Assembly: GCA_051294905.1 (NCBI GenBank)
Contig: CM119371.1
Span: 27,282,001-27,346,000 of the forward strand
DNA from: Botryllus schlosseri
Lineage: Eukaryota
Direction of reading: 5' to 3'
DNA length: 64,000 nucleotides
The translations under genes were made by a program, and so were the position numbers. Under the pieces are notes generated by a model. That model was not told the origin of the DNA. It did not search any database and saw only the letters and a program-made list of their open reading frames with translations. Shown here in pieces: positions 25,599-64,000 of this stretch (its first letter is position 1; each line of letters opens with the position of its first letter).

Positions 25599-26913
25599 CT
25601 ATATAAAGTATAGGTAGCAGCGTTGAATCCCTCGCATGTTATGGTCGTAATCGAAGAATATTGTTGAATTCATGTTTTACATTCGCTGAGCACCGAAGCC
25701 ACAACTTGATAAAACCAAATACTCCTACGGGAACGCGAAAACCAGTTATCACATTATGCGTAAAATTGACTACCCATAGTTTCACCGTACGTATAGGAAT
25801 TTCAGGACAGAGAACTCAACTTCGCATGGCGTCTTAGTACCTGTTACAACACATTCCGTGGTCCCAAGCTGTGCGCTAGATGCAGACGGTCGCTCCTTCG
25901 GAGATTTATCTCGTCCTTTTTCCATTTCTTCAGCGTGCACGAAGTCGAATTACTGCTACCGTATGGGATACTTTAAAATCACTTGGACAACCAAAAGCCT
26001 TGACTGCAAACGAACAACTGAACACCAGCACGCAGACAACTATACCTTCGCAACAGCTATTGCGGGCCACGGCTAATAAGTAGCTCGCCTTGCTAATAAT
26101 GACGTTTCCAAGATAACCAAGGCACGATTGCTGTAAGTAAGGCTTAGAATTTTTCTATTGGCTGTATCCTTTTTTGTTAGTTTGAACATATAGTGGTGCT
26201 TCGTTTAGCTGTGTACCTCAAGTTACAGGAATAAACTCCACTTTCGTGACGCATTGAAACCTGACATTGTTACATACCGAAAGGTATTGTTTAATTCGAT
26301 TGAGGGCTAAACCAATGGAGTCTCGGAAATACAGATATAACTGTCGAAATCAATTTAGTCCAGCCCAGTGGTTCTCAAATTGTAGAGCCACTAGTGCGGT
26401 TGTTTTCAAACTGTGATACGTGTGGTCACTAGTGGTACGCCAGGCGTTTTTATGTGGTACGCGATTAGTTCGGTGATCGTTGTATTTAGTCTTCAATTTG
26501 CTGTAACAATTTGATGTAACAATATCTGCAGTTGTACAAACATTTCACGTTGATACTATTGAGTCGCATGAGATCCACACTACAGTGATTACATCGTGGG
26601 TGTCAAACTTAAATTACTTCTCGGTTCGGATTAAAACCTTCAAATCGCTCGCGGGCCGCACCAGTCCACTCATTCCAAAAGTTACCTCAAGTTTTTGCTT
26701 ATCACATGAATACTGTATTATTAGGCATACATCGATAATTATAATCATGAGCCGCGATACGACGTAATATGCTATTGCAATAATACATATGACATTGCAT
26801 CACGGTTCGTAGGGGTTTTACTCCAGCAAATAGCAACACCTCTATTCGCGAACGATGGAATTGGTCGAAATACGATGATTAGCATGTCGAGTGCAGTTAT
26901 GAACCGCTAAAAC

Positions 26914-54494: not shown

Positions 54495-54652
54495 AGTAGT
54501 GTAATTGTGGTCCCGTGATTCGTAAAATACCGGAAACAAGAATGTTGCATTTCGGAAGTCAGAAACGGTGCATTTTGAGCTAGCTAGTGGTCGAAAATCG
54601 GCCTATGGAGCTTCGAAAAAGCGTCATTGTGCGCTTCCCGCGATCGATTTTG

Positions 54653-54915
54653 AAAACAGGTGTTTTAATGCGAAGTGACCTACATATTCTGCGGAGACAA
54701 ATGACTATGGTATCCTGTCCACTGAAATCACTACGCGAATTGCTTCCCGTGGAACAGGTTGGACTAGAAGCAATCCGTGAGCGTAAAACAGGTGTTTTAA
54801 TGCGAAGTGACCTACATATTCTGCGGAGACAAATGACTATGGTATCCTGTCCACTGAAATCACTACGCGAATTGCTCCCCGTGGAACAGGTTGTCGAAAA
54901 GCAATCGTGAGCGTA
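54653..54915 (+). repeat. 2 x 132-bp subterminal tandem repeat of the Polinton
   Basis: AAAACAGGTGTTTTAATGCG... at 54653 and 54785, nearly identical over the first ~108 bp. Confidence 0.95.
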
Positions 54916-55045: not shown

Positions 55046-55642
55046 TCATTCTTGTAACTCTAGAATTCGAGTTAACTGGTCAATCTTTAATCTTCCATCC
55101 TGATTTTTGACGCGCGTTAGTGCATACTTTCTCCCTTTTTTTAAACCAGGCGAGGTCCATTGATCGAGTTTGACAGTTCCGGTGTCATCGCTTAACGTAA
55201 AACTATGTAGTTTGAGGTCTTCGCCATTGACGGGGATGGATTTTTCCTCATGGTCGGTACATATCGCATTGATTGAAATATATTTTTCGCTGCCTATATT
55301 GTTACAGCTTACAACGGCGTATTCGTCTGGGGTGTGTTTTGATCTGCCATGAATAGTAACAGACGAACTGCGACCGAGTAGCAAAGTAGGTTCCCCTGAA
55401 AACTTATCGAGTCGAGCCCAGGCTGTTTTGATGAGTACTCGCTTCCGTTTCCTAAAAGCTTTTTCGATGGCTTTGAACAGTTCTTGGTTGAAACAAGTGA
55501 AGGGTATAGTATTGTTCTCGTTGTCTATAAATACACCTTTCAGGTAACTACTAACGAGCCCCTTTTTCGGGGAGGAAACAAACTTTACTGCAAGCCGCAG
55601 GTCCGATGATTTTCCAATGGCCAATCCTTGTATACTCTCCAT
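55046..55642 (-). CDS. Putative tandem OB-fold (RPA-like) ssDNA-binding protein, 198 aa
   Basis: FTLSDDTGTVKLDQW matches the OB-fold L-x-D-x-T-G-x-I-x-L-x-x-W motif; N-half has analogous FIDNENNTIPFTCF; TATAAAA ~45 nt upstream. Confidence 0.7.
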   Translation of the reverse strand: MESIQGLAIGKSSDLRLAVKFVSSPKKGLVSSYLKGVFIDNENNTIPFTCFNQELFKAIEKAFRKRKRVLIKTAWARLDKFSGEPTLLLGRSSSVTIHGRSKHTPDEYAVVSCNNIGSEKYISINAICTDHEEKSIPVNGEDLKLHSFTLSDDTGTVKLDQWTSPGLKKGRKYALTRVKNQDGRLKIDQLTRILELQE

Positions 55643-55686
55643 TGCTATGATGTCCAGATAATGATCATTGTCGCGGGTTACTCGTA

Positions 55687-55709
55687 TTTTATAGACCTAG
55701 TCACGTGAC
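55687..55709 (-). promoter_or_regulatory. Candidate promoter of the OB-fold gene: palindromic E-box GTCACGTGAC and TATAAAA
   Basis: GTCACGTGAC at 55700-55709; minus-strand TATAAAA at 55693-55687. Confidence 0.5.
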
Positions 55710-56170
55710 CATAAACGCGTAGTTACTCGGTTTAGAAGTTTGATGAATCGCCTGAACAGACTTGGTTTGAAATAATCCTTGCAGGAATTCTGTAAATAAA
55801 ATCATAGTGATAGTTTTATGATTGTGTAGTCTGAAATTCAGCATACCCAATCATTTGTCAGTGAGATAAAGTGTGTATTCAAGAATTTCGATGATACATC
55901 TGTGTACAATGAGATAGTATGAACATCACTTTTCATAGCTGCGATCGCTACAATGCACATAACACCATTCCAGTCCACACCGTACCCCAGAATCGCGTTG
56001 GTTAATGATGTGAAATCACATTTTTCGATGCTCTCAACAATTTGATCAGATATGTATAAATCAACGATATCGTGAACCAACTGTTCTGTTTCGCTCAAAT
56101 CAGGGACAGGTAAATGGTGATGGTGAAGTAGATAATTTTCTATAATCACTCGGGTATAAGTTGAGTCCAT
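55701..56170 (-). CDS. Putative viral Bcl-2-like protein, predicted two exons (56170-55847, 55790-55701), 137 aa
   Basis: BH4-like TRVIIENYL, BH1-like ILGYGVDWNGVMCIVAIA, BH2-like FISLTNDW|NSCKDYF after removing a 56-nt GTATGC...TTTTATTTACAG intron. Confidence 0.6.
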
Positions 56171-56421: not shown

Positions 56422-57309
56422 ATGGCCCAGGCTCAGTTGAACAGATTTAATACCCTCGGGTATGAACCTAATTCTTTTGAACTACAATTTGAAGAGGATG
56501 CAGATATTTTGGAGGCCCTCCTACCCGAAGACCTCGTTGCTTCAACGACAGAGGTCGTTGAGTGTGATTCCACGACCCCTATCGAAAACCAACCGCCTCA
56601 CCGTGACATCACATTACAGGCATGGCTGGAATCGCGTGGTTCGAACCAAGTTGCGGTTGACAACCCGACAACCTCGGGTTCGAACTTACCCCTTCCAGAT
56701 GAACCGACAACTTCAGCTGTGTTACCAGTTGAGAAACCGTCAACTCCTCGTAAGATTTTTCCAAAATCTAGAGTTCGATCCGCGGTACCATCTGACAAAC
56801 CGACGACCTCTCGAAGGTTATTTTCTGGCCTACCAAAACCACAGATCCCAATCGAGAAACCATCAAGTTCTAGAAAGCGAGATGTACCCACAACCTCGCA
56901 ACAAACCAGTGCACCTCCGTGTAAAAAGATATGTCTCTCTAAATCGAAACAAAAAACTTTGGTTCTTAACCAGGAGAAACTCAGCGAGGGTGAAGATCGG
57001 CCGAAGACATCGCGAGGGAGACGACAAGAGGAGAAGATATGTCTGTACACCGCCAACAAAATTCGAGACCATCTCAAGACTCTTGAAGTGGTCAGACCAC
57101 ACCTAGGCGTGATTCTAGGTTTAATTGATTCCCTTACAGAAAAGAAGAAACCTTCCCTACAGAAAATCATTCTTGAAATAAAAAAGCTATTGGCTTCGGC
57201 TATTGAACGCAGTGATCTTGATCAGATTCAAAACCAACTGAACGATGCAACCAACCAATTCCTGAACCAGCTCTTAACAATTAGAACCACCTTGAAATAT
57301 AATTTGTGA
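56422..57309 (+). CDS. Polinton accessory protein (~295 aa): acidic N-terminus, disordered P/S/T-rich middle, basic NLS-like segment, helical C-terminus
   Basis: Long open frame, first ATG at 56422; repeated PTTS/PSSS/PKTS; PPCKK; leucine-periodic C-terminus. Confidence 0.8.
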   Translation: MAQAQLNRFNTLGYEPNSFELQFEEDADILEALLPEDLVASTTEVVECDSTTPIENQPPHRDITLQAWLESRGSNQVAVDNPTTSGSNLPLPDEPTTSAVLPVEKPSTPRKIFPKSRVRSAVPSDKPTTSRRLFSGLPKPQIPIEKPSSSRKRDVPTTSQQTSAPPCKKICLSKSKQKTLVLNQEKLSEGEDRPKTSRGRRQEEKICLYTANKIRDHLKTLEVVRPHLGVILGLIDSLTEKKKPSLQKIILEIKKLLASAIERSDLDQIQNQLNDATNQFLNQLLTIRTTLKYNL

Positions 57310-57520
57310 TTCAGTGTAATGTATTTATTGTGTGAATGTGAATGTTCATGTGATGTGTATGAAATTACAGATAATAGGCTTACAAACGATCTTAAATCGT
57401 GAACACTAGATGGTGCTCGCACTAGATTAATCTCGACGCAGCCAAATCGGTCTTTTCCACCTGGACGCCGCAGCGAGAGGATGTGAAATCTGCGCTCGTG
57501 AATATATTACCAATCCACGT

Positions 57521-57817
57521 GTAAGTATACACTGATCTTATTCAATAAACCAAAAGTTTGTGTTAACGTGATGTTTTCTTGCTTCATCGAAACAGAGAAA
57601 GAGAAGAATCAACCCCAATCATCGAACTTATTGCATCGGTGAGTTCTCTGTTTTTACTACCTTAAGTTGGTGAACATAATTTTGAGGAAGGTTGTTTCTT
57701 TGCTTACCAGGTGAAAAAGAACTCAAGATTTCAAGAGAAAAAATATAAGTAAGTATTACTATCTCGTTGATTACTAGAATACAGAGTGTGAAATTGAAAT
57801 CGAATTCAATGTTACAG
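57521..57817 (+). other. Three predicted short introns (57521-57595, 57639-57710, 57749-57817) upstream of polB
   Basis: Donors GTAAGT, GTGAGT, GTAAGT alternate with CAG acceptors at 75/72/69-nt spacing; last acceptor abuts the ATG at 57818. Confidence 0.6.
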
Positions 57818-60800
57818 ATGAGCCGTCGCAGAAGACACCGTATCCGTGAGGAAGATGAATTTCCACCAGATATTGGTGATGAACGTCAAGAAATTTTAAC
57901 ACAGAACTGGCAAGCCATAAAATCGTATGTAGCAAACATAGGCAGATCTCGAGTGGTGTACAATATTCGGATTATAAATCGTCAACTCTTGGCTGTTCGC
58001 GAGGACATTGAAGCGATATTCTTCTCTGAATCATATAGATTTAAAGTCAACTATTCATATGGCTGTATCCTATACCACACCGAGACTCTGAGATATCGTT
58101 ATTTTCATGCATCGTCAAATATCGATCGTGTTCTGGATATGCCATTGGCTATTTCGTCATTGATACAGTTTGAAAAATTTGTAGAATCCATTAAATTGGA
58201 AACTGCATTTGATGTATTGCGTAAAGCCCGACCTGATACTAAATCACAACCTGTTTGTCTAACAAATATACAGTTTTACATATTCCCTAGTGATCGGTTA
58301 TTGATAGGGTGTGCTGATGTTAAACTTCCTCTGTGGCTTACAAAATCGAAATGTGTCTTGACACTACTTTACGATAAAAATCGTAATCGGTATAATGATA
58401 ATCTGTGTGTATTTCGTTGCATTGGACACTCACTCGATCGTGATGCGAAATCACTGGCTCAACAGTATACCCAGGTTTATGGTGTGAACGTTGTTGGTGG
58501 TGTAACTTTTGAGATGTTACCTGACATCGAGACATTGTTTGATGTAGCTATATCTGTCTATCGTAAGACCGATGGTAAAGCTATTGCTGTCCGACGTAGT
58601 ACTTATGTAGCCACTCCTGTTTATTTACACCTCGAAAATTCTCATGCTTGCTTGATAACTCAGATCAATCGATACCTCGAAAGCTATCATTGTGAATCTT
58701 GTGGAAAATTTTTCGATATTGCAACCCATCTGACCAGGCACAACTGCATCACTGAACCTGTCGAGATATTTCCCGGCGGGATATATAGACCACCTTTGAC
58801 GGTATTTGAACGAATGGAGATTGAAGGCATAATTGTCCCAAATCATTTACGTTTTTTCAAATATCGGATTGCCTTCGATATCGAGAGTATGTTTCAACAA
58901 TGTGATTTTGATCCCTCAGCTAAAACGACTTACGAGTGGAAGCATATTCCAATTTCCGTTAGTATATCATCAAATGTAGACGGGTATTTGGAACCACAAG
59001 TAATTGTTTCGAATGGTGACCCAATTCAGTTGTGTGAAGAGATGGTAGAGATTTTTCATACAATTCAGAGTCGATCCTTCAGTCTGTTGCTAGTTGAATA
59101 CCGTCAATATCTCGATTTGTTTGAATCTAAAATCACAGAGATGAAAGTATTAGACCCCTCGGACAAGCCTTTACCATTGGAACGTTTACAAGATGAATTC
59201 ATGTGCTATCTAAGGCAAATACCAGTTATATCTTTTAATGGTGGTAGATACGATTTGAACTGTCTTAAGGTATACTTGCTGCGTTTTTTCGTTGATGAAA
59301 ACTTGAATGTTTTGAAGCGTGGTAACACATTTCTCTCGCTAACTACGAACAGGCTTCGTTTCCTCGATATCGTCAATTACTTGGCACCTGGTTTTTCTTA
59401 TGAAAAATATCTGAAAGCGTTCAAATGTAGTGGTGGAAAGGGTCATTTTCCATATGAATTTCTGACTAGTATTGAACTGTTAGATTACCCTATGCTCCCG
59501 AATCATCAGTCATTTTATAGCTCGATAAAACGTTGTAATATATCGAAAGCTGATTATGAAAACTGCCTCAAGGTTTGGAATGATCATAATATGACATCGC
59601 TTCGTGACTATCTAAAATGGTACAATGCAATTGACACACACTACTTCATTGAAGGCCTAGAAAAGCAATTCGACTCTTTCAAGTCTCAATTTAATGTGGA
59701 TATATTTAAAGAAGCTGTCTCGCTGCCGGGTGTGGTTTCGAGGCATATATTCAATTCCATTCCAAGGTACTTTACCTTGTTCAGTGAAAAGCATAAAGAT
59801 CTAGCTTTACTTTTTCGTGAAAATCTTGTCGGTGGCCCCTCAATCATCTTTAATCGGTATCAAAAAAGGGGGGAAACTCGCATAAAACAACTTTTCTATG
59901 GTAAAGATGCGGAAATAACACAGTATATAACAGGTATGGACTGCAATTCGATGTACTTGAAAGCAGTATCGATTGCGTCACCCGCAGGCTATCCCATTCA
60001 TTGGAAAAGCCTTGATAACGAGTGTTCTAAATTTAAACCGGTTAAGACTGCTCCTACCTTTGGTCATAAAGCACATGAATGGATACAGTACTATTCTCAT
60101 GTTCATGGTGTACATGTCCACCATGCTTTCAACGGGTCTGAAGTAAGAATAGGATCCAAGGGGTACCCTGCAGATGGCTTCTACCGTGACTCATCAGGTC
60201 GAGGCGTTGTGTTATCATTTCTGGGATGTTTCTACCATTCTCACAGTAAATGCCGCTTTTCGTATGACGACCCGACGCGTCGAGAACGAACAGAACGTGT
60301 ACATTCATATTACAGAAGCCTAGGGCATCGTGTTATCACGATGTGGGAATGTCACTGGGATATCTCTAAACGTGAAAACTCCGAAATCACTCAATTTATA
60401 AACAGTGTTCGACCTCGATTGATTCGCAACAAGTCACTAACAGCTCATAAGTTGATTGAAATGGTGTTAGATGGAACGTTCTTTGGGGCTTTACTGGTTG
60501 ATATTTACACTCCTTCCCATTTGAAAAGATATTTTTCTGAACTGTGTCCAATATTCAAAAACACCCTTGTCTCACGTAACGACTTGAAAGGTCACATGAA
60601 GCAATTTGCTATTGATCACAACCTATTACCAACACCAACACGTATGTTGGTTGCATCGTACTATGGCCAGAGAATTCTTTTGTCATCGACATTGATAAAA
60701 TGGTATATAGAACATGGTCTAATTGTTTCACGGGTATACGAGGCAATTGAGTTTACAAAATCAACTTGTTTTGACGGTTTCGCAAAAACTGTCTCTGACG

Positions 60801-61669
60801 CGAGACGCCTAGGGGACCGCGACCAAGACAAGGAAATTATTGCCTTGACTCATAAGCTTTCTGGGAATGTGATATATGGGAAGATGATAATGAACCCCCT
60901 CAAATTTAAACGAACCAGTTTTTGTGATAAAAGTCAATTGCGGAGAAATGTCAATGATCCGTTTTTTGTGAATGTAGAAGACTTGAGCTCCAATTTATAC
61001 GAAGTAACCAAAAGGCCTAAAAAAATAAAATGGAATACTTGCATTCACGTCGGATGGTTCGTCTATCAATACGCGAAGGAGCAATTACTATCGTTTTTTT
61101 ACGACTGTCTCTGTGCGTACTTTGATGACAGGAAATGGACTTCCTTAATGTGCGATACTGACTCGATCTACGTCGGGCATTCAGCTTCTTTCGATGATAT
61201 GCTAATCCCAGAAAAAAGATCTGAATTTTATCTGAATTACGAAAAATGGTTCCCACGCTATTTTTGTGACCAACATAGAAATGAGTTCCTGTCCAACCCA
61301 ACCTCATTCGATCGAACGAGACAATGTTGTAAAGATGTCTATGCATACTTTCTACGGGAACCAGGTTTGTTCAAGGTCGAATACGAGGATGGCACTGCAT
61401 TTTGTGGTCTCCAGTCGAAAAATTACTTTTGTGATGGTCCAAAACAAAAGTATGCCTCGAAAGGTCTTCAGAAATCTGGTCAAGTAAATTTTGAAGCATT
61501 CCTTGAAGTATTGACATCTCAAAAACCTATGGGGGGTCATAATAGAGGTTTCAGAGTTCATAATAATGGTATTTACACGTACCAGCAGCATCGCGATACC
61601 TTGTCTTATTTTTACGCCAAGCGTCATGTTCTGGACGATGGCGTCACCACTATTCCGTTGAATGTGTAA
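57818..61669 (+). CDS. polB: Protein-primed family B DNA polymerase (N-terminal/terminal-protein region, vOTU-like domain, Zn finger, 3'-5' exonuclease, Vsr-like insert, polymerase)
   Basis: Exo motifs FDIE, FNGGRYD, KGHFPY, YNAID; GGPS, DCNSMY, KLSGNVIYGK, DTDS; frame open from 57767, likely start ATG 57818 (alternative 57809). Confidence 0.97.
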   Translation: MSRRRRHRIREEDEFPPDIGDERQEILTQNWQAIKSYVANIGRSRVVYNIRIINRQLLAVREDIEAIFFSESYRFKVNYSYGCILYHTETLRYRYFHASSNIDRVLDMPLAISSLIQFEKFVESIKLETAFDVLRKARPDTKSQPVCLTNIQFYIFPSDRLLIGCADVKLPLWLTKSKCVLTLLYDKNRNRYNDNLCVFRCIGHSLDRDAKSLAQQYTQVYGVNVVGGVTFEMLPDIETLFDVAISVYRKTDGKAIAVRRSTYVATPVYLHLENSHACLITQINRYLESYHCESCGKFFDIATHLTRHNCITEPVEIFPGGIYRPPLTVFERMEIEGIIVPNHLRFFKYRIAFDIESMFQQCDFDPSAKTTYEWKHIPISVSISSNVDGYLEPQVIVSNGDPIQLCEEMVEIFHTIQSRSFSLLLVEYRQYLDLFESKITEMKVLDPSDKPLPLERLQDEFMCYLRQIPVISFNGGRYDLNCLKVYLLRFFVDENLNVLKRGNTFLSLTTNRLRFLDIVNYLAPGFSYEKYLKAFKCSGGKGHFPYEFLTSIELLDYPMLPNHQSFYSSIKRCNISKADYENCLKVWNDHNMTSLRDYLKWYNAIDTHYFIEGLEKQFDSFKSQFNVDIFKEAVSLPGVVSRHIFNSIPRYFTLFSEKHKDLALLFRENLVGGPSIIFNRYQKRGETRIKQLFYGKDAEITQYITGMDCNSMYLKAVSIASPAGYPIHWKSLDNECSKFKPVKTAPTFGHKAHEWIQYYSHVHGVHVHHAFNGSEVRIGSKGYPADGFYRDSSGRGVVLSFLGCFYHSHSKCRFSYDDPTRRERTERVHSYYRSLGHRVITMWECHWDISKRENSEITQFINSVRPRLIRNKSLTAHKLIEMVLDGTFFGALLVDIYTPSHLKRYFSELCPIFKNTLVSRNDLKGHMKQFAIDHNLLPTPTRMLVASYYGQRILLSSTLIKWYIEHGLIVSRVYEAIEFTKSTCFDGFAKTVSDARRLGDRDQDKEIIALTHKLSGNVIYGKMIMNPLKFKRTSFCDKSQLRRNVNDPFFVNVEDLSSNLYEVTKRPKKIKWNTCIHVGWFVYQYAKEQLLSFFYDCLCAYFDDRKWTSLMCDTDSIYVGHSASFDDMLIPEKRSEFYLNYEKWFPRYFCDQHRNEFLSNPTSFDRTRQCCKDVYAYFLREPGLFKVEYEDGTAFCGLQSKNYFCDGPKQKYASKGLQKSGQVNFEAFLEVLTSQKPMGGHNRGFRVHNNGIYTYQQHRDTLSYFYAKRHVLDDGVTTIPLNV

Positions 61670-61718
61670 TGTGGTTGCTTTTGTATATTTCTGATCATGT
61701 TTTTTCTTGTTTTCTCAG

Positions 61719-62261
61719 ATGAATAGTGCAAGTTCTTTCATCAAATCTGTTTTAATAGAGTTAGATCTGGATACTTTGCATAAGCAAACCATTGGCTTGG
61801 AACAGGATTTAACGCAACACTCTATTGTCGGGACCCAGGACGAACCACTCACCGGTACGATATCCGACCGTCATTACAGAGAGCGCCTGAATCAGCTCGA
61901 GCAAAGATGGAACTCTATTCGTGAAATATGCATGGAAGCACTACTACAACTCCGATTCCCAGACCGCAAGCTACCGAGTGATCACCAAGACATTTTCAAT
62001 CGAGCCAAGCTGACGAATTATGTCGTTTTGGGTAAAACCAGGACTTGGATCCCACTTTTCGATAGGGAGGAAAAAAGAGCCAACTTCAAGAATTGTATGC
62101 GTGGACGTTCGTTGCAGTTCTTTCTCGACGACCATCGTGCCGCCAACTCTCGAAAACGATCTCATTCAGATTCGGAAAGCAGTGATGCTGGAACACAACC
62201 TTCTGAATTGAGAAATGATGGCTTCCCCGATAACTATAACTGTGCCGATCCCAATTTGTGA
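61719..62261 (+). CDS. Polinton hypothetical protein A (180 aa), paralog of the next gene
   Basis: ATG directly follows TTTTTCTTGTTTTCTCAG; aligns with the spliced product of 62379-62842. Confidence 0.8.
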   Translation: MNSASSFIKSVLIELDLDTLHKQTIGLEQDLTQHSIVGTQDEPLTGTISDRHYRERLNQLEQRWNSIREICMEALLQLRFPDRKLPSDHQDIFNRAKLTNYVVLGKTRTWIPLFDREEKRANFKNCMRGRSLQFFLDDHRAANSRKRSHSDSESSDAGTQPSELRNDGFPDNYNCADPNL

Positions 62262-62378
62262 TATTTTGCTGTTTAGTGATAATGCTTATCAATTTTAAGT
62301 GTTCAAATGTAATATCTGATCGGGTTAAAGACCAGTTTTGTGCTCGGATGGTTAATGTATTTGTGTTTTGTTTTACAG

Positions 62379-62842
62379 ATGGCTACTAACTACTTAAAAT
62401 CTATACTGCAACATTCCAACCTGGATCAACTACACAACAAGACACTGCGCCGTTATCACGATCGCATTCAAGTCGTCGACATGTATTTGAGACATGATAT
62501 GTCGAATGAATTCTACAATCAATGCATTTCAAGCCAACGCGATGATTTAGAACAATGCTCCCATGGTGAGATAGCATGTATGATTTTGTGTTCTCATGGT
62601 AGACATTTTCACAAATAACTTTCTGACACAACTCTAATACCATTTCATATCTAGACTGGGAACAACTGCTCGACGACCTTCAAAAAGCCTTTGTGACCTT
62701 GCAGCTACCCCTGACGAAATTACAAGCCAGTGATGAGGACTTTGTGACACGCGGCAAACTACTGAATCGAACTTTACTGGGGTTATACATCCCACTTGAG
62801 GATGAATACAACAGTGGGTTTTCCCAGTCCGCAGACTCGTGA
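62379..62842 (+). CDS. Polinton hypothetical protein B (124 aa), two exons 62379-62565 and 62655-62842
   Basis: 89-nt phase-1 intron GTGAGA...CTCTAAT...CTAG; splicing gives a gap-free alignment with protein A across the junction. Confidence 0.8.
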
Positions 62843-62890
62843 TATATATATATAAATACATTCGTTTTTCGAGTTTGAATAAACAGCAAC

Positions 62891-63499
62891 ATGGAATTCA
62901 AGCATCCTTTCTCATTCATCCTATCTGGACCATCTCGTAGTGGTAAAACTACTTTCATCACTAAACTTATCAAGAATGCAGCCTCGATGATCAAACCTAA
63001 TATTTCTAGAATCGTGTACTGTTATAATAATTATCAGAGTATTTTTGAGACCATGCCCCAGGTTGAATTTTACAATGGATTGGAGATTTTGGAAGATCTT
63101 AAATCAAGTAATGAGGATGTATTGATAATAGTAGACGATTTTATGACTCAGACAGAAAAATTGGTAGAATATTTTATACGTATATCGCATCATAATCGAA
63201 AGTCAATAATTTTATGCACGCAGAATTTCCATCATCAGGGTAAAGGGGCTCGCGACCTTAGTCTATCAGCTATGTATGTCTGCCTGTTTAAAAATCCCAG
63301 AGATCAGAACCAAATATCCGTCTTGGGGCGTCAGATGTACCCAAAGTCTAAGTTTCTAACAGAATGTTATAGAGACGCTGTCAAGAGACCTCATTCGTAT
63401 TTGTGCCTGGATCTCACCCAAGAGTGCCCCGACGATAGACGGGTCATGACCAATATATTTCCAGGCGAAACATTGACTATTTACACTCAACCGGTATAA
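62891..63499 (+). CDS. A32/FtsK-like DNA packaging ATPase of Polintons
   Basis: HPF, Walker A GPSRSGKT, Walker B IIVDD, SHH...TQN, LFKNPRD, YLCLDL; TATA-like TATAAATA at ~62851. Confidence 0.95.
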   Translation: MEFKHPFSFILSGPSRSGKTTFITKLIKNAASMIKPNISRIVYCYNNYQSIFETMPQVEFYNGLEILEDLKSSNEDVLIIVDDFMTQTEKLVEYFIRISHHNRKSIILCTQNFHHQGKGARDLSLSAMYVCLFKNPRDQNQISVLGRQMYPKSKFLTECYRDAVKRPHSYLCLDLTQECPDDRRVMTNIFPGETLTIYTQPV

Positions 63500-63529
63500 A
63501 TACCGGAGTGTACGCTGTTCTGGTTCAAA

Positions 63530-63877
63530 ATGACTCCGATTCCGCGCAGAACAAGAGACCATTTGCCAACATTAGCATTCTTGCATCAAGCTAAACCTTC
63601 GATACGCAAGGAGATTTTATCTGGGGCTAGTGAAGGTCTAATACGTTGTATTTGTGAGTGTGCGAAAAATTTATTACACGGAAATATACCGCTATCAGCG
63701 TCCCAGAGAAAACGCTTGTGTTGCCATAGGAACATCTTGAGGAAGCTTACCAGTAAAGACGTTTCATTGCGCCGTAAAAGGACTCTTGTAACTCAAAATG
63801 GTGGGATGTTTATGTCTCTAATATCAAGTATACTCCCAGTAGTTACAGGATTACTCGGGAATTTATTTAAGAAATGA
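63530..63877 (+). CDS. Polinton PW-like basic virion protein with C-terminal GG cleavage-like site and amphipathic tail
   Basis: LIRCICECAKNLLHGNIPL and QNGGMFMSLISSILP resemble PW as recalled; follows the ATPase; TATAAATA at 63495. Confidence 0.8.
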   Translation: MTPIPRRTRDHLPTLAFLHQAKPSIRKEILSGASEGLIRCICECAKNLLHGNIPLSASQRKRLCCHRNILRKLTSKDVSLRRKRTLVTQNGGMFMSLISSILPVVTGLLGNLFKK

Positions 63878-64000
63878 CCCATTTTAAGAAAATCTACGTC
63901 ACGCCGAATCCACTGAACCATGTCGACATTCAAAAACTGAATTCGGACATCGATAAACGTATATATGAAATATTACAAATGGATATTCCACGGGGTAAAA
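63874..64000 (+). CDS. 5' part of the next Polinton ORF (probably PZ-like), truncated by the window end
   Basis: ATG overlaps the PW stop (ATGA); open to the end: MTHFKKIYVTPNPLNHVDIQKLNSDIDKRIYEILQMDIPRGK; assignment rests on synteny and weak resemblance. Confidence 0.6.
   Translation, partial: MTHFKKIYVTPNPLNHVDIQKLNSDIDKRIYEILQMDIPRGK

Follow-up and report, generated by a model that had tools for sequence, protein, structure and literature searches.

A tandem gene pair in a Botryllus Polinton that differs by one probable intron, with a host spliced leader on the upstream gene

Introduction

The expression of the tightly packed genes of Polintons (Mavericks) is hardly known, and surveys of vertebrate elements call them intronless. 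In vertebrate Mavericks, an AGTAGT end and a one-strand module of pPolB (protein-primed family B DNA polymerase), packaging ATPase and a gene in the PM position have been described (PMC8097293); in the available part of that survey (Barreat and Katzourakis 2021) the intact elements are described as intronless, and no conserved gene is listed for the interval from ppolb to atp. In nematodes, intron-bearing non-core genes, wasp and krma, reside inside Mavericks with intronless core genes (10.1101/2022.07.12.499685, Widen et al.). According to the accessible text of that work, they occupy a cargo region flanked by the left repeat and the integrase, and they encode recognisable proteases and kinases. 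Introners have been reported from dinoflagellate Polinton-like elements (PMC12166617), and group I introns from protist Polinton-like elements (PMC12220804).

Trans-splicing as such is treated in PMC3074122. The operons of Ciona, which are resolved by spliced-leader (SL) addition, consist of closely spaced genes on one strand, with a downstream gene receiving the host leader, and are, in the part of the report at hand, mostly devoid of intercistronic DNA (PMC1488885). About 30% of transposon long reads from Hydra bear the host leader (PMC12220107), and the portion of that study available to us contains no gene-level Maverick case. Four further sources (PMC3691228, PMC8070245, 10.64898/2026.10.13.758929 and 10.1101/2023.08.22.554363), as far as their text was available, added nothing to the comparison of known and new. 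No trans-spliced or intron-bearing ascidian Polinton genes were found in the literature searched, in which subscription journals were thinly covered.

Here we describe a Polinton locus from the ascidian Botryllus schlosseri. The window, i.e. the whole stretch of DNA that was analysed, comprises 64,000 nucleotides (assembly GCA_051294905.1, contig CM119371.1, positions 27,282,001 to 27,346,000, forward strand). The locus resembles vertebrate Mavericks in its AGTAGT end and its one-strand module, but it has two paralogs, hereafter genes A and B, between pPolB and the packaging ATPase, one of them with a probable intron. With wasp and krma it shares an intron-bearing non-core gene next to intronless core genes; unlike these, A and B are part of the core module, form a tandem pair differing by an intron and could be assigned to no family. 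As in the Ciona operons, genes of the same strand follow each other closely and a host leader is found, whereas here gaps of 48-117 nt separate the genes, the ATG follows immediately on the acceptor, and the element is virus-like.

Results

The left part of a Polinton

The left part of a Polinton/Maverick makes up the final 9.5 kb of the window. Its probable left end on the plus strand, AGTAGT at 54495..54500, was assigned from the sequence and corresponds to the (AGT)2 terminal motif described for Mavericks (PMC8097293); on the right, the element continues past the end of the window. Two of the features by which Polintons/Mavericks are recognised, a protein-primed family B polymerase and an A32/FtsK-like packaging ATPase, are encoded on the plus strand. 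The pPolB ORF (57809..61669, 1286 aa) matched the Pfam family DNA_pol_B_2 at E 2.7e-4, which is weaker than the curated cut-off, and the ATPase ORF (62891..63499, 202 aa) matched Pox_A32 at E 4.3e-6, which passes the cut-off. Genes A and B sit between the two on the same strand, and the intergenic gaps from pPolB through A and B to the ATPase measure 49, 117 and 48 nt. A 115-aa ORF (63530..63877, plus strand) was assigned to the PM gene slot by position only, following the Maverick gene order pPolB-atp-pm-pz (PMC8097293); it has two unnamed homologues.

Relatives of the ATPase were confined to 2 short loci out of 33 matches in metagenomes, and in viral contigs neither the ATPase query nor the pPolB and 115-aa ORF queries retrieved a related Polinton locus. 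The two distant metagenome ATPase loci are each followed by an ORF, in L002 (505-940) and L001 (1020-1181), that looks by eye like the 115-aa ORF of the window, which supports a conserved ATPase-PM order.

Several further features were observed left of pPolB. A tandem duplication of about 130 bp lies just inside the left end (54650-54910). On the minus strand, a 198-aa ORF (55046-55642) resembles by eye an OB-fold single-strand DNA-binding protein, with sub-threshold Pfam hits only; a contig from sequencing run X1 lacks 620 nt of 55086-55707 between non-canonical ends, and with them most of this ORF; the contig is probably a deleted copy. A 110-aa ORF (55838-56170, minus strand) looks by eye like a Bcl-2 fold and contains what we take to be a BH1-like stretch. 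It had no sequence match in Pfam or the PDB. Bcl2 homologues have been reported from adintoviruses (PMC8502044). A 295-aa ORF (56422-57309, plus strand) combines a long low-complexity part with a helical C-terminus.

Genes A and B are old paralogs

Gene A (61719..62261, plus strand) is an intact, intronless ORF of 180 aa with a helical core of about 110 aa followed by a hydrophilic tail of 60 aa. Gene B, when read without splicing, runs from the ATG at 62379 to a stop at 62616-62618 and yields a product of 79 aa. Its alignment to A divides it into exon 1 (62379..62565, plus strand; 62 codons plus 1 nt) and exon 2 (62655..62842, plus strand). That A and spliced B form a paralog pair had been claimed in an earlier note on this DNA, and the claim is borne out by comparison with shuffled sequences. 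With X at the junction, the local alignment scored 115 (z 16), a value reached in 0 of 5000 shuffles (mean 30.4, maximum 58). Exon 2 matched A by itself (score 70, 0/5000 shuffles; BLASTP E 3e-7), exon 1 alone scored 54 (2/5000 shuffles), and the unspliced product of B matched A with a BLASTP E of 2e-4. Since each exon matches A separately, the similarity of A and B is independent of the splice choice. The same note had described a gap-free alignment of spliced B to A, with both continuing to a common (W/Y)IPLxD motif; the alignment is gap-free across the junction, and a 3-residue gap lies before the motif. Globally, 34 of 110 columns are identical, and at the DNA level no similarity is left between A and B, the best match being 11-13 nt. 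This degree of divergence indicates that the duplication is old. Judged by their sequences, A and B are thus real, old tandem paralogs.

The 295-aa ORF was considered as a third paralog and rejected: its score of 45 with B was reached in 24 of 2000 shuffles, in one of 12 comparisons, and that with A in 428 of 2000. The likeness to B, which is weak, concerns B's first helix.

The probable intron of gene B and its origin

The two exons of B are separated by 89 nt on the plus strand (62566..62654) that read as a phase-1 GT-AG intron, GTGAGA...CATATCTAG, and contain the in-frame stop at 62616-62618. Its removal restores the frame of B, and the GT-AG ends together with a branch-like CTAAT at 62634 are those of a spliceosomal intron. 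The GC content is 33%, compared with 40% and 48% in the exons. Among the 15 frame-keeping GT-AG pairs listed, the proposed donor and acceptor gave the best score (115; runner-up 104). Neither a flanking duplication nor a second copy of the 89 nt was found, and no repeat points to an origin from an introner or a duplication.

It follows from the alignment, as stated in the earlier note, that an intron was gained or lost in one of the two paralogs; A carries none at the corresponding position. Paralogs that differ by a single intron offer a clean case to date gain or loss. B might descend from a host gene that was captured together with its intron, A being a duplicate from which the intron was lost; this would be similar to nematode Maverick cargo. 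Intron-bearing cargo genes have indeed been described in Mavericks (10.1101/2022.07.12.499685, in its available part), and the host-type intron and the use of a host leader would fit such an origin. We nevertheless consider a capture possible but rather doubtful: a host homologue was not found in profile, sequence and PDB searches, the pair resides in the core module, away from the cargo region close to the left end, and the element has a further intron outside B (see below). Because of this further intron, gain in place is equally plausible.

Fold and possible function of the proteins

Searches with A or the A/B alignment for homologues of unchanged length confirmed 0/30 and 0/37 candidates. 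Pattern matches were likewise confirmed in 0 of 2 cases among viral contigs and in 0 of 339 among metagenome contigs. Pfam and PHROGs gave sub-threshold matches only, PDB sequences gave no match with E <0.05, and the Atlas nothing usable for A 1-125 or B exon 2. No hydrophobic segment is present in the proteins.

A model of A 1-120, for which the B exons served as rows of the alignment, reached a pLDDT of 62 and shows three long helices; a single-sequence model with a pLDDT of 48 was set aside. Foldseek returned no match to the A model at E <= 0.001, and in structural alignment the model reached a Z of about 8 to many bundles. For helical bundles, Z values below about 13 are generic. BAG1 headed the list in a second look (Z 8.5, rmsd 2.6, 92 aligned) and ranked 7 in the wide search. 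The BAG1 chains (PDB 5aqk_B, 3fzf_B and 1hx1_B) are bundles of the same size as the A model (Z 8.1-8.5, rmsd 2.6-3.0, 92-93 residues aligned, 16-19% identity), but they tie with CorA, CINP, SNARE, STAT, spectrin and other unrelated bundles, the pLDDT of the model is only 62, and neither the BAG family nor solved BAG chains appear in the Pfam and PDB sequence-search listings. The predicted complex of A with B scored 0.01, which is evidence neither way.

Our guess, to which we would give about an even chance, is that A and B act as soluble adaptors with a three-helix-bundle fold and a host protein as partner, and are not enzymes or capsid parts. The most specific candidate function suggested by the model, a BAG-like mimic of an Hsp70 co-chaperone, is a guess with a low chance of being right. 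Alternatively, the same gene structure could encode viral machinery, with A and B as cofactors of the polymerase or the packaging ATPase or as minor virion proteins, possibly in a heterodimer. Their place in the core module, in the pPolB-ATPase interval and on the same strand, would be in keeping with this, and the linkage is kept in an X1 contig (61433-63525). It is unlikely, however, given that the available survey text lists for vertebrate Mavericks no conserved gene in this interval (PMC8097293), that L001, the one related ATPase locus with upstream DNA, has there a Cys-rich ORF that by eye looks unrelated, and that no homologue was found among 1.84 billion representatives besides two long repeat proteins, which were discarded. 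The lack of A/B homologues is what would be expected of a fast-evolving accessory gene, the role that we prefer for the pair.

Contigs with and without the 89 nt

From 24 listed sequencing runs four were used, namely X1 and X10 as assembled contigs and X16 and X19 as raw RNA. The library type of X1 and X10 is unrecorded (RNA was guessed for X1), and contigs cannot separate RNA from DNA; nor does a contig that crosses several genes demonstrate a single transcript. Most mapped records are less than 99% alike to the window and hence come from sister copies or alleles.

The junction of B without the intron occurs in contigs of both assembled runs. One X10 contig skips exactly 62566-62654, from GT to AG (depth 3.3, shorter side 22 nt), while the main X10 contig (62377-64000) retains the intron at a depth of 10.6. 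Contig 7 of X1 (61433-63525, depth 33.9) skips 92 letters and has 3 others between, a net difference of 89. The X1 depth of 23.5 in the intron bin equals that of the intron-less contig spread over 209 of 301 positions (hand arithmetic), which leaves no intron-bearing X1 contig there. Over the end of pPolB, A and B exon 1, contig 7 differs from the window by 0.8%, and over B exon 2 and the ATPase by 4.2%; it is a mosaic copy or a chimeric contig. In raw RNA, 68 reads of X19 mapped with a mean depth of about 4 and no joint listed, and no read of X16 mapped.

The spliceosomal intron proposed in the earlier note is thereby supported, through the alignment and the intron-less contigs. Retention with a stop at 62618 had been named there as the outcome that would speak against it; the spliced junction is present in the X10 and X1 contigs, but the main X10 contig keeps the intron and no joint is listed for X19. 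As the contigs are blind to RNA versus DNA and retention in X10 seems common, we regard the intron of B as well supported, not proven.

The X1 intron-less contig could be a DNA copy. Extending this thought, the 89 nt would be an insertion present in some genomic copies and absent from others, so that intron-less B exists as DNA and copies like that of the window mostly encode the 79-aa stub. The unrecorded library type of both runs, the intergenic stretches that the X1 contig also crosses, the retention in the main X10 contig and the raw RNA without a listed joint are all compatible with such an insertion. It is nonetheless very unlikely in view of the canonical GT-AG ends, the branch-like site and the low GC, and neither a flanking duplication nor a second copy was found. 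Moreover, exon 2 has an intact frame, X1 has a second GT..AG joint, and X10 contains both forms as well as a 5' extension of leader length. A spliceosomal intron therefore remains the reading that we adopt.

A host leader at gene A, and probably at gene B

The earlier note had overlooked that acceptors precede both start codons and that a host leader is joined at that of A. Directly before the ATG of A, a pyrimidine tract (14/15 pyrimidines) and a CAG form an acceptor (61697..61718, plus strand). Four raw RNA reads of X19 carry sequencing adapter and 19 leader letters ahead of 61717; they represent perhaps only two molecules and come from one of the two raw RNA runs. Together with the AG, these 19 letters are identical to the final 21 nt of the leader consensus 'Chordata 1', which is 25 nt long (PMC3795323, Table 1). 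A 13-mer of the leader has no exact match within the 64-kb window; a leader-like 13-mer near 25720 (minus strand) was rejected as the leader source, the rest of the leader being absent there. The leader is thus found in RNA at an unpaired acceptor and is not encoded upstream, as in SL trans-splicing, and A is capped with the host spliced leader.

The acceptor before the ATG of B (62361..62378, plus strand) has 11/15 pyrimidines. Contig 15 of X10, the main contig, begins its fit at 62377 and has 23 unaligned 5' letters, which correspond, in length only, to the 25-nt leader minus the common AG. A host leader on B is therefore probable, as inferred from this length. A YAG preceded by at least 10/15 pyrimidines stands before 13 of the 2371 ATGs in the window, those of A and B included. 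For pPolB and the ATPase, no leader was listed in the runs examined.

A probable intron upstream of pPolB

A 72-nt GT-AG intron (57639..57710, plus strand) is indicated upstream of pPolB by a single X1 contig of depth 2.6, which has a joint at 57637/57710 with 21 nt on the shorter side. The region 57595-57818 further contains a GTAAGT close to 57749, and in it a CAG immediately precedes a second ATG of pPolB at 57818; the region is a possible multi-exon leader of pPolB, and pPolB may start at this second ATG. An adenovirus-like common viral leader, transcribed from upstream of pPolB and joined in cis to the acceptors of the two genes A and B, could draw on the intron spliced in X1 and the donor-like GTAAGT, but is highly improbable, since the four joints listed include no long-range joint to 61718 or 62378 and the letters ahead of A are those of the host leader.

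Discussion

We consider it likely that A and B have the gene structure proposed here and are expressed through the host spliceosome. Paralogy of the two genes, the leader at the ATG of A and contigs with an intron-less B were observed directly. Together, the host-type intron of B and the leader on A suggest that the element borrows host splicing.

On the proposed reading, A and B stem from an old tandem duplication, and the accessory gene concerned was inserted between pPolB and the packaging ATPase. The rightward genes would be read as a tandem, operon-like precursor RNA shared by the pair. Addition of the leader at the acceptor of A or of B would then release separate capped mRNAs ending near the AATAAA past B (62878..62883), the only AATAAA/ATTAAA on the plus strand in 61030-64000. 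B would additionally require cis-splicing of its 89-nt intron; retention would lead to the 79-aa stub, which lacks the latter half of the domain, and might serve a regulatory role. The strand bias of the X19 reads over 61020-63126 (9.2 vs 2.0) speaks for this route; its reversal over 57107-57407, a stretch that includes the 3' end of the 295-aa ORF, speaks against it. The three gaps between pPolB and the ATPase resemble the operon spacing in the available part of the Ciona report (PMC1488885) and were counted in favour of an operon-like reading.

In its most far-reaching form, the core module would be a host-style operon cut by SL addition, with intron retention setting the level of B, and A and B would represent a viral family, new to date, of BAG-like regulators of Hsp70, with a recent intron gain in an active element. 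We give this combination only a slim chance; if operon, BAG-like function and recent gain were all true, the element would be tied to hosts with trans-splicing.

The finding that a Polinton gene takes a host leader at an acceptor abutting its ATG, while its twin would need an intron removed, offers a testable expression route for Polintons, and it might account for a restriction, if there is one, of such elements to hosts that trans-splice. It also implies that annotation based on ORFs only overlooks Polinton genes of this kind.

With regard to the proteins, A and B are comparable to Oncoid and Adintoc of the adintoviruses, which are likewise accessory genes found in animal Polintons and whose function is unknown or directed at the host (PMC8502044). 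Oncoid is characterised by an LxCxE together with a CxxC motif (PMC8502044), whereas A and both B exons have neither. Every ingredient has a precedent, and intron-bearing Maverick cargo and leader-bearing transposon RNAs are already in print. We see the value of the locus in its expression route; any function of the proteins is a guess.
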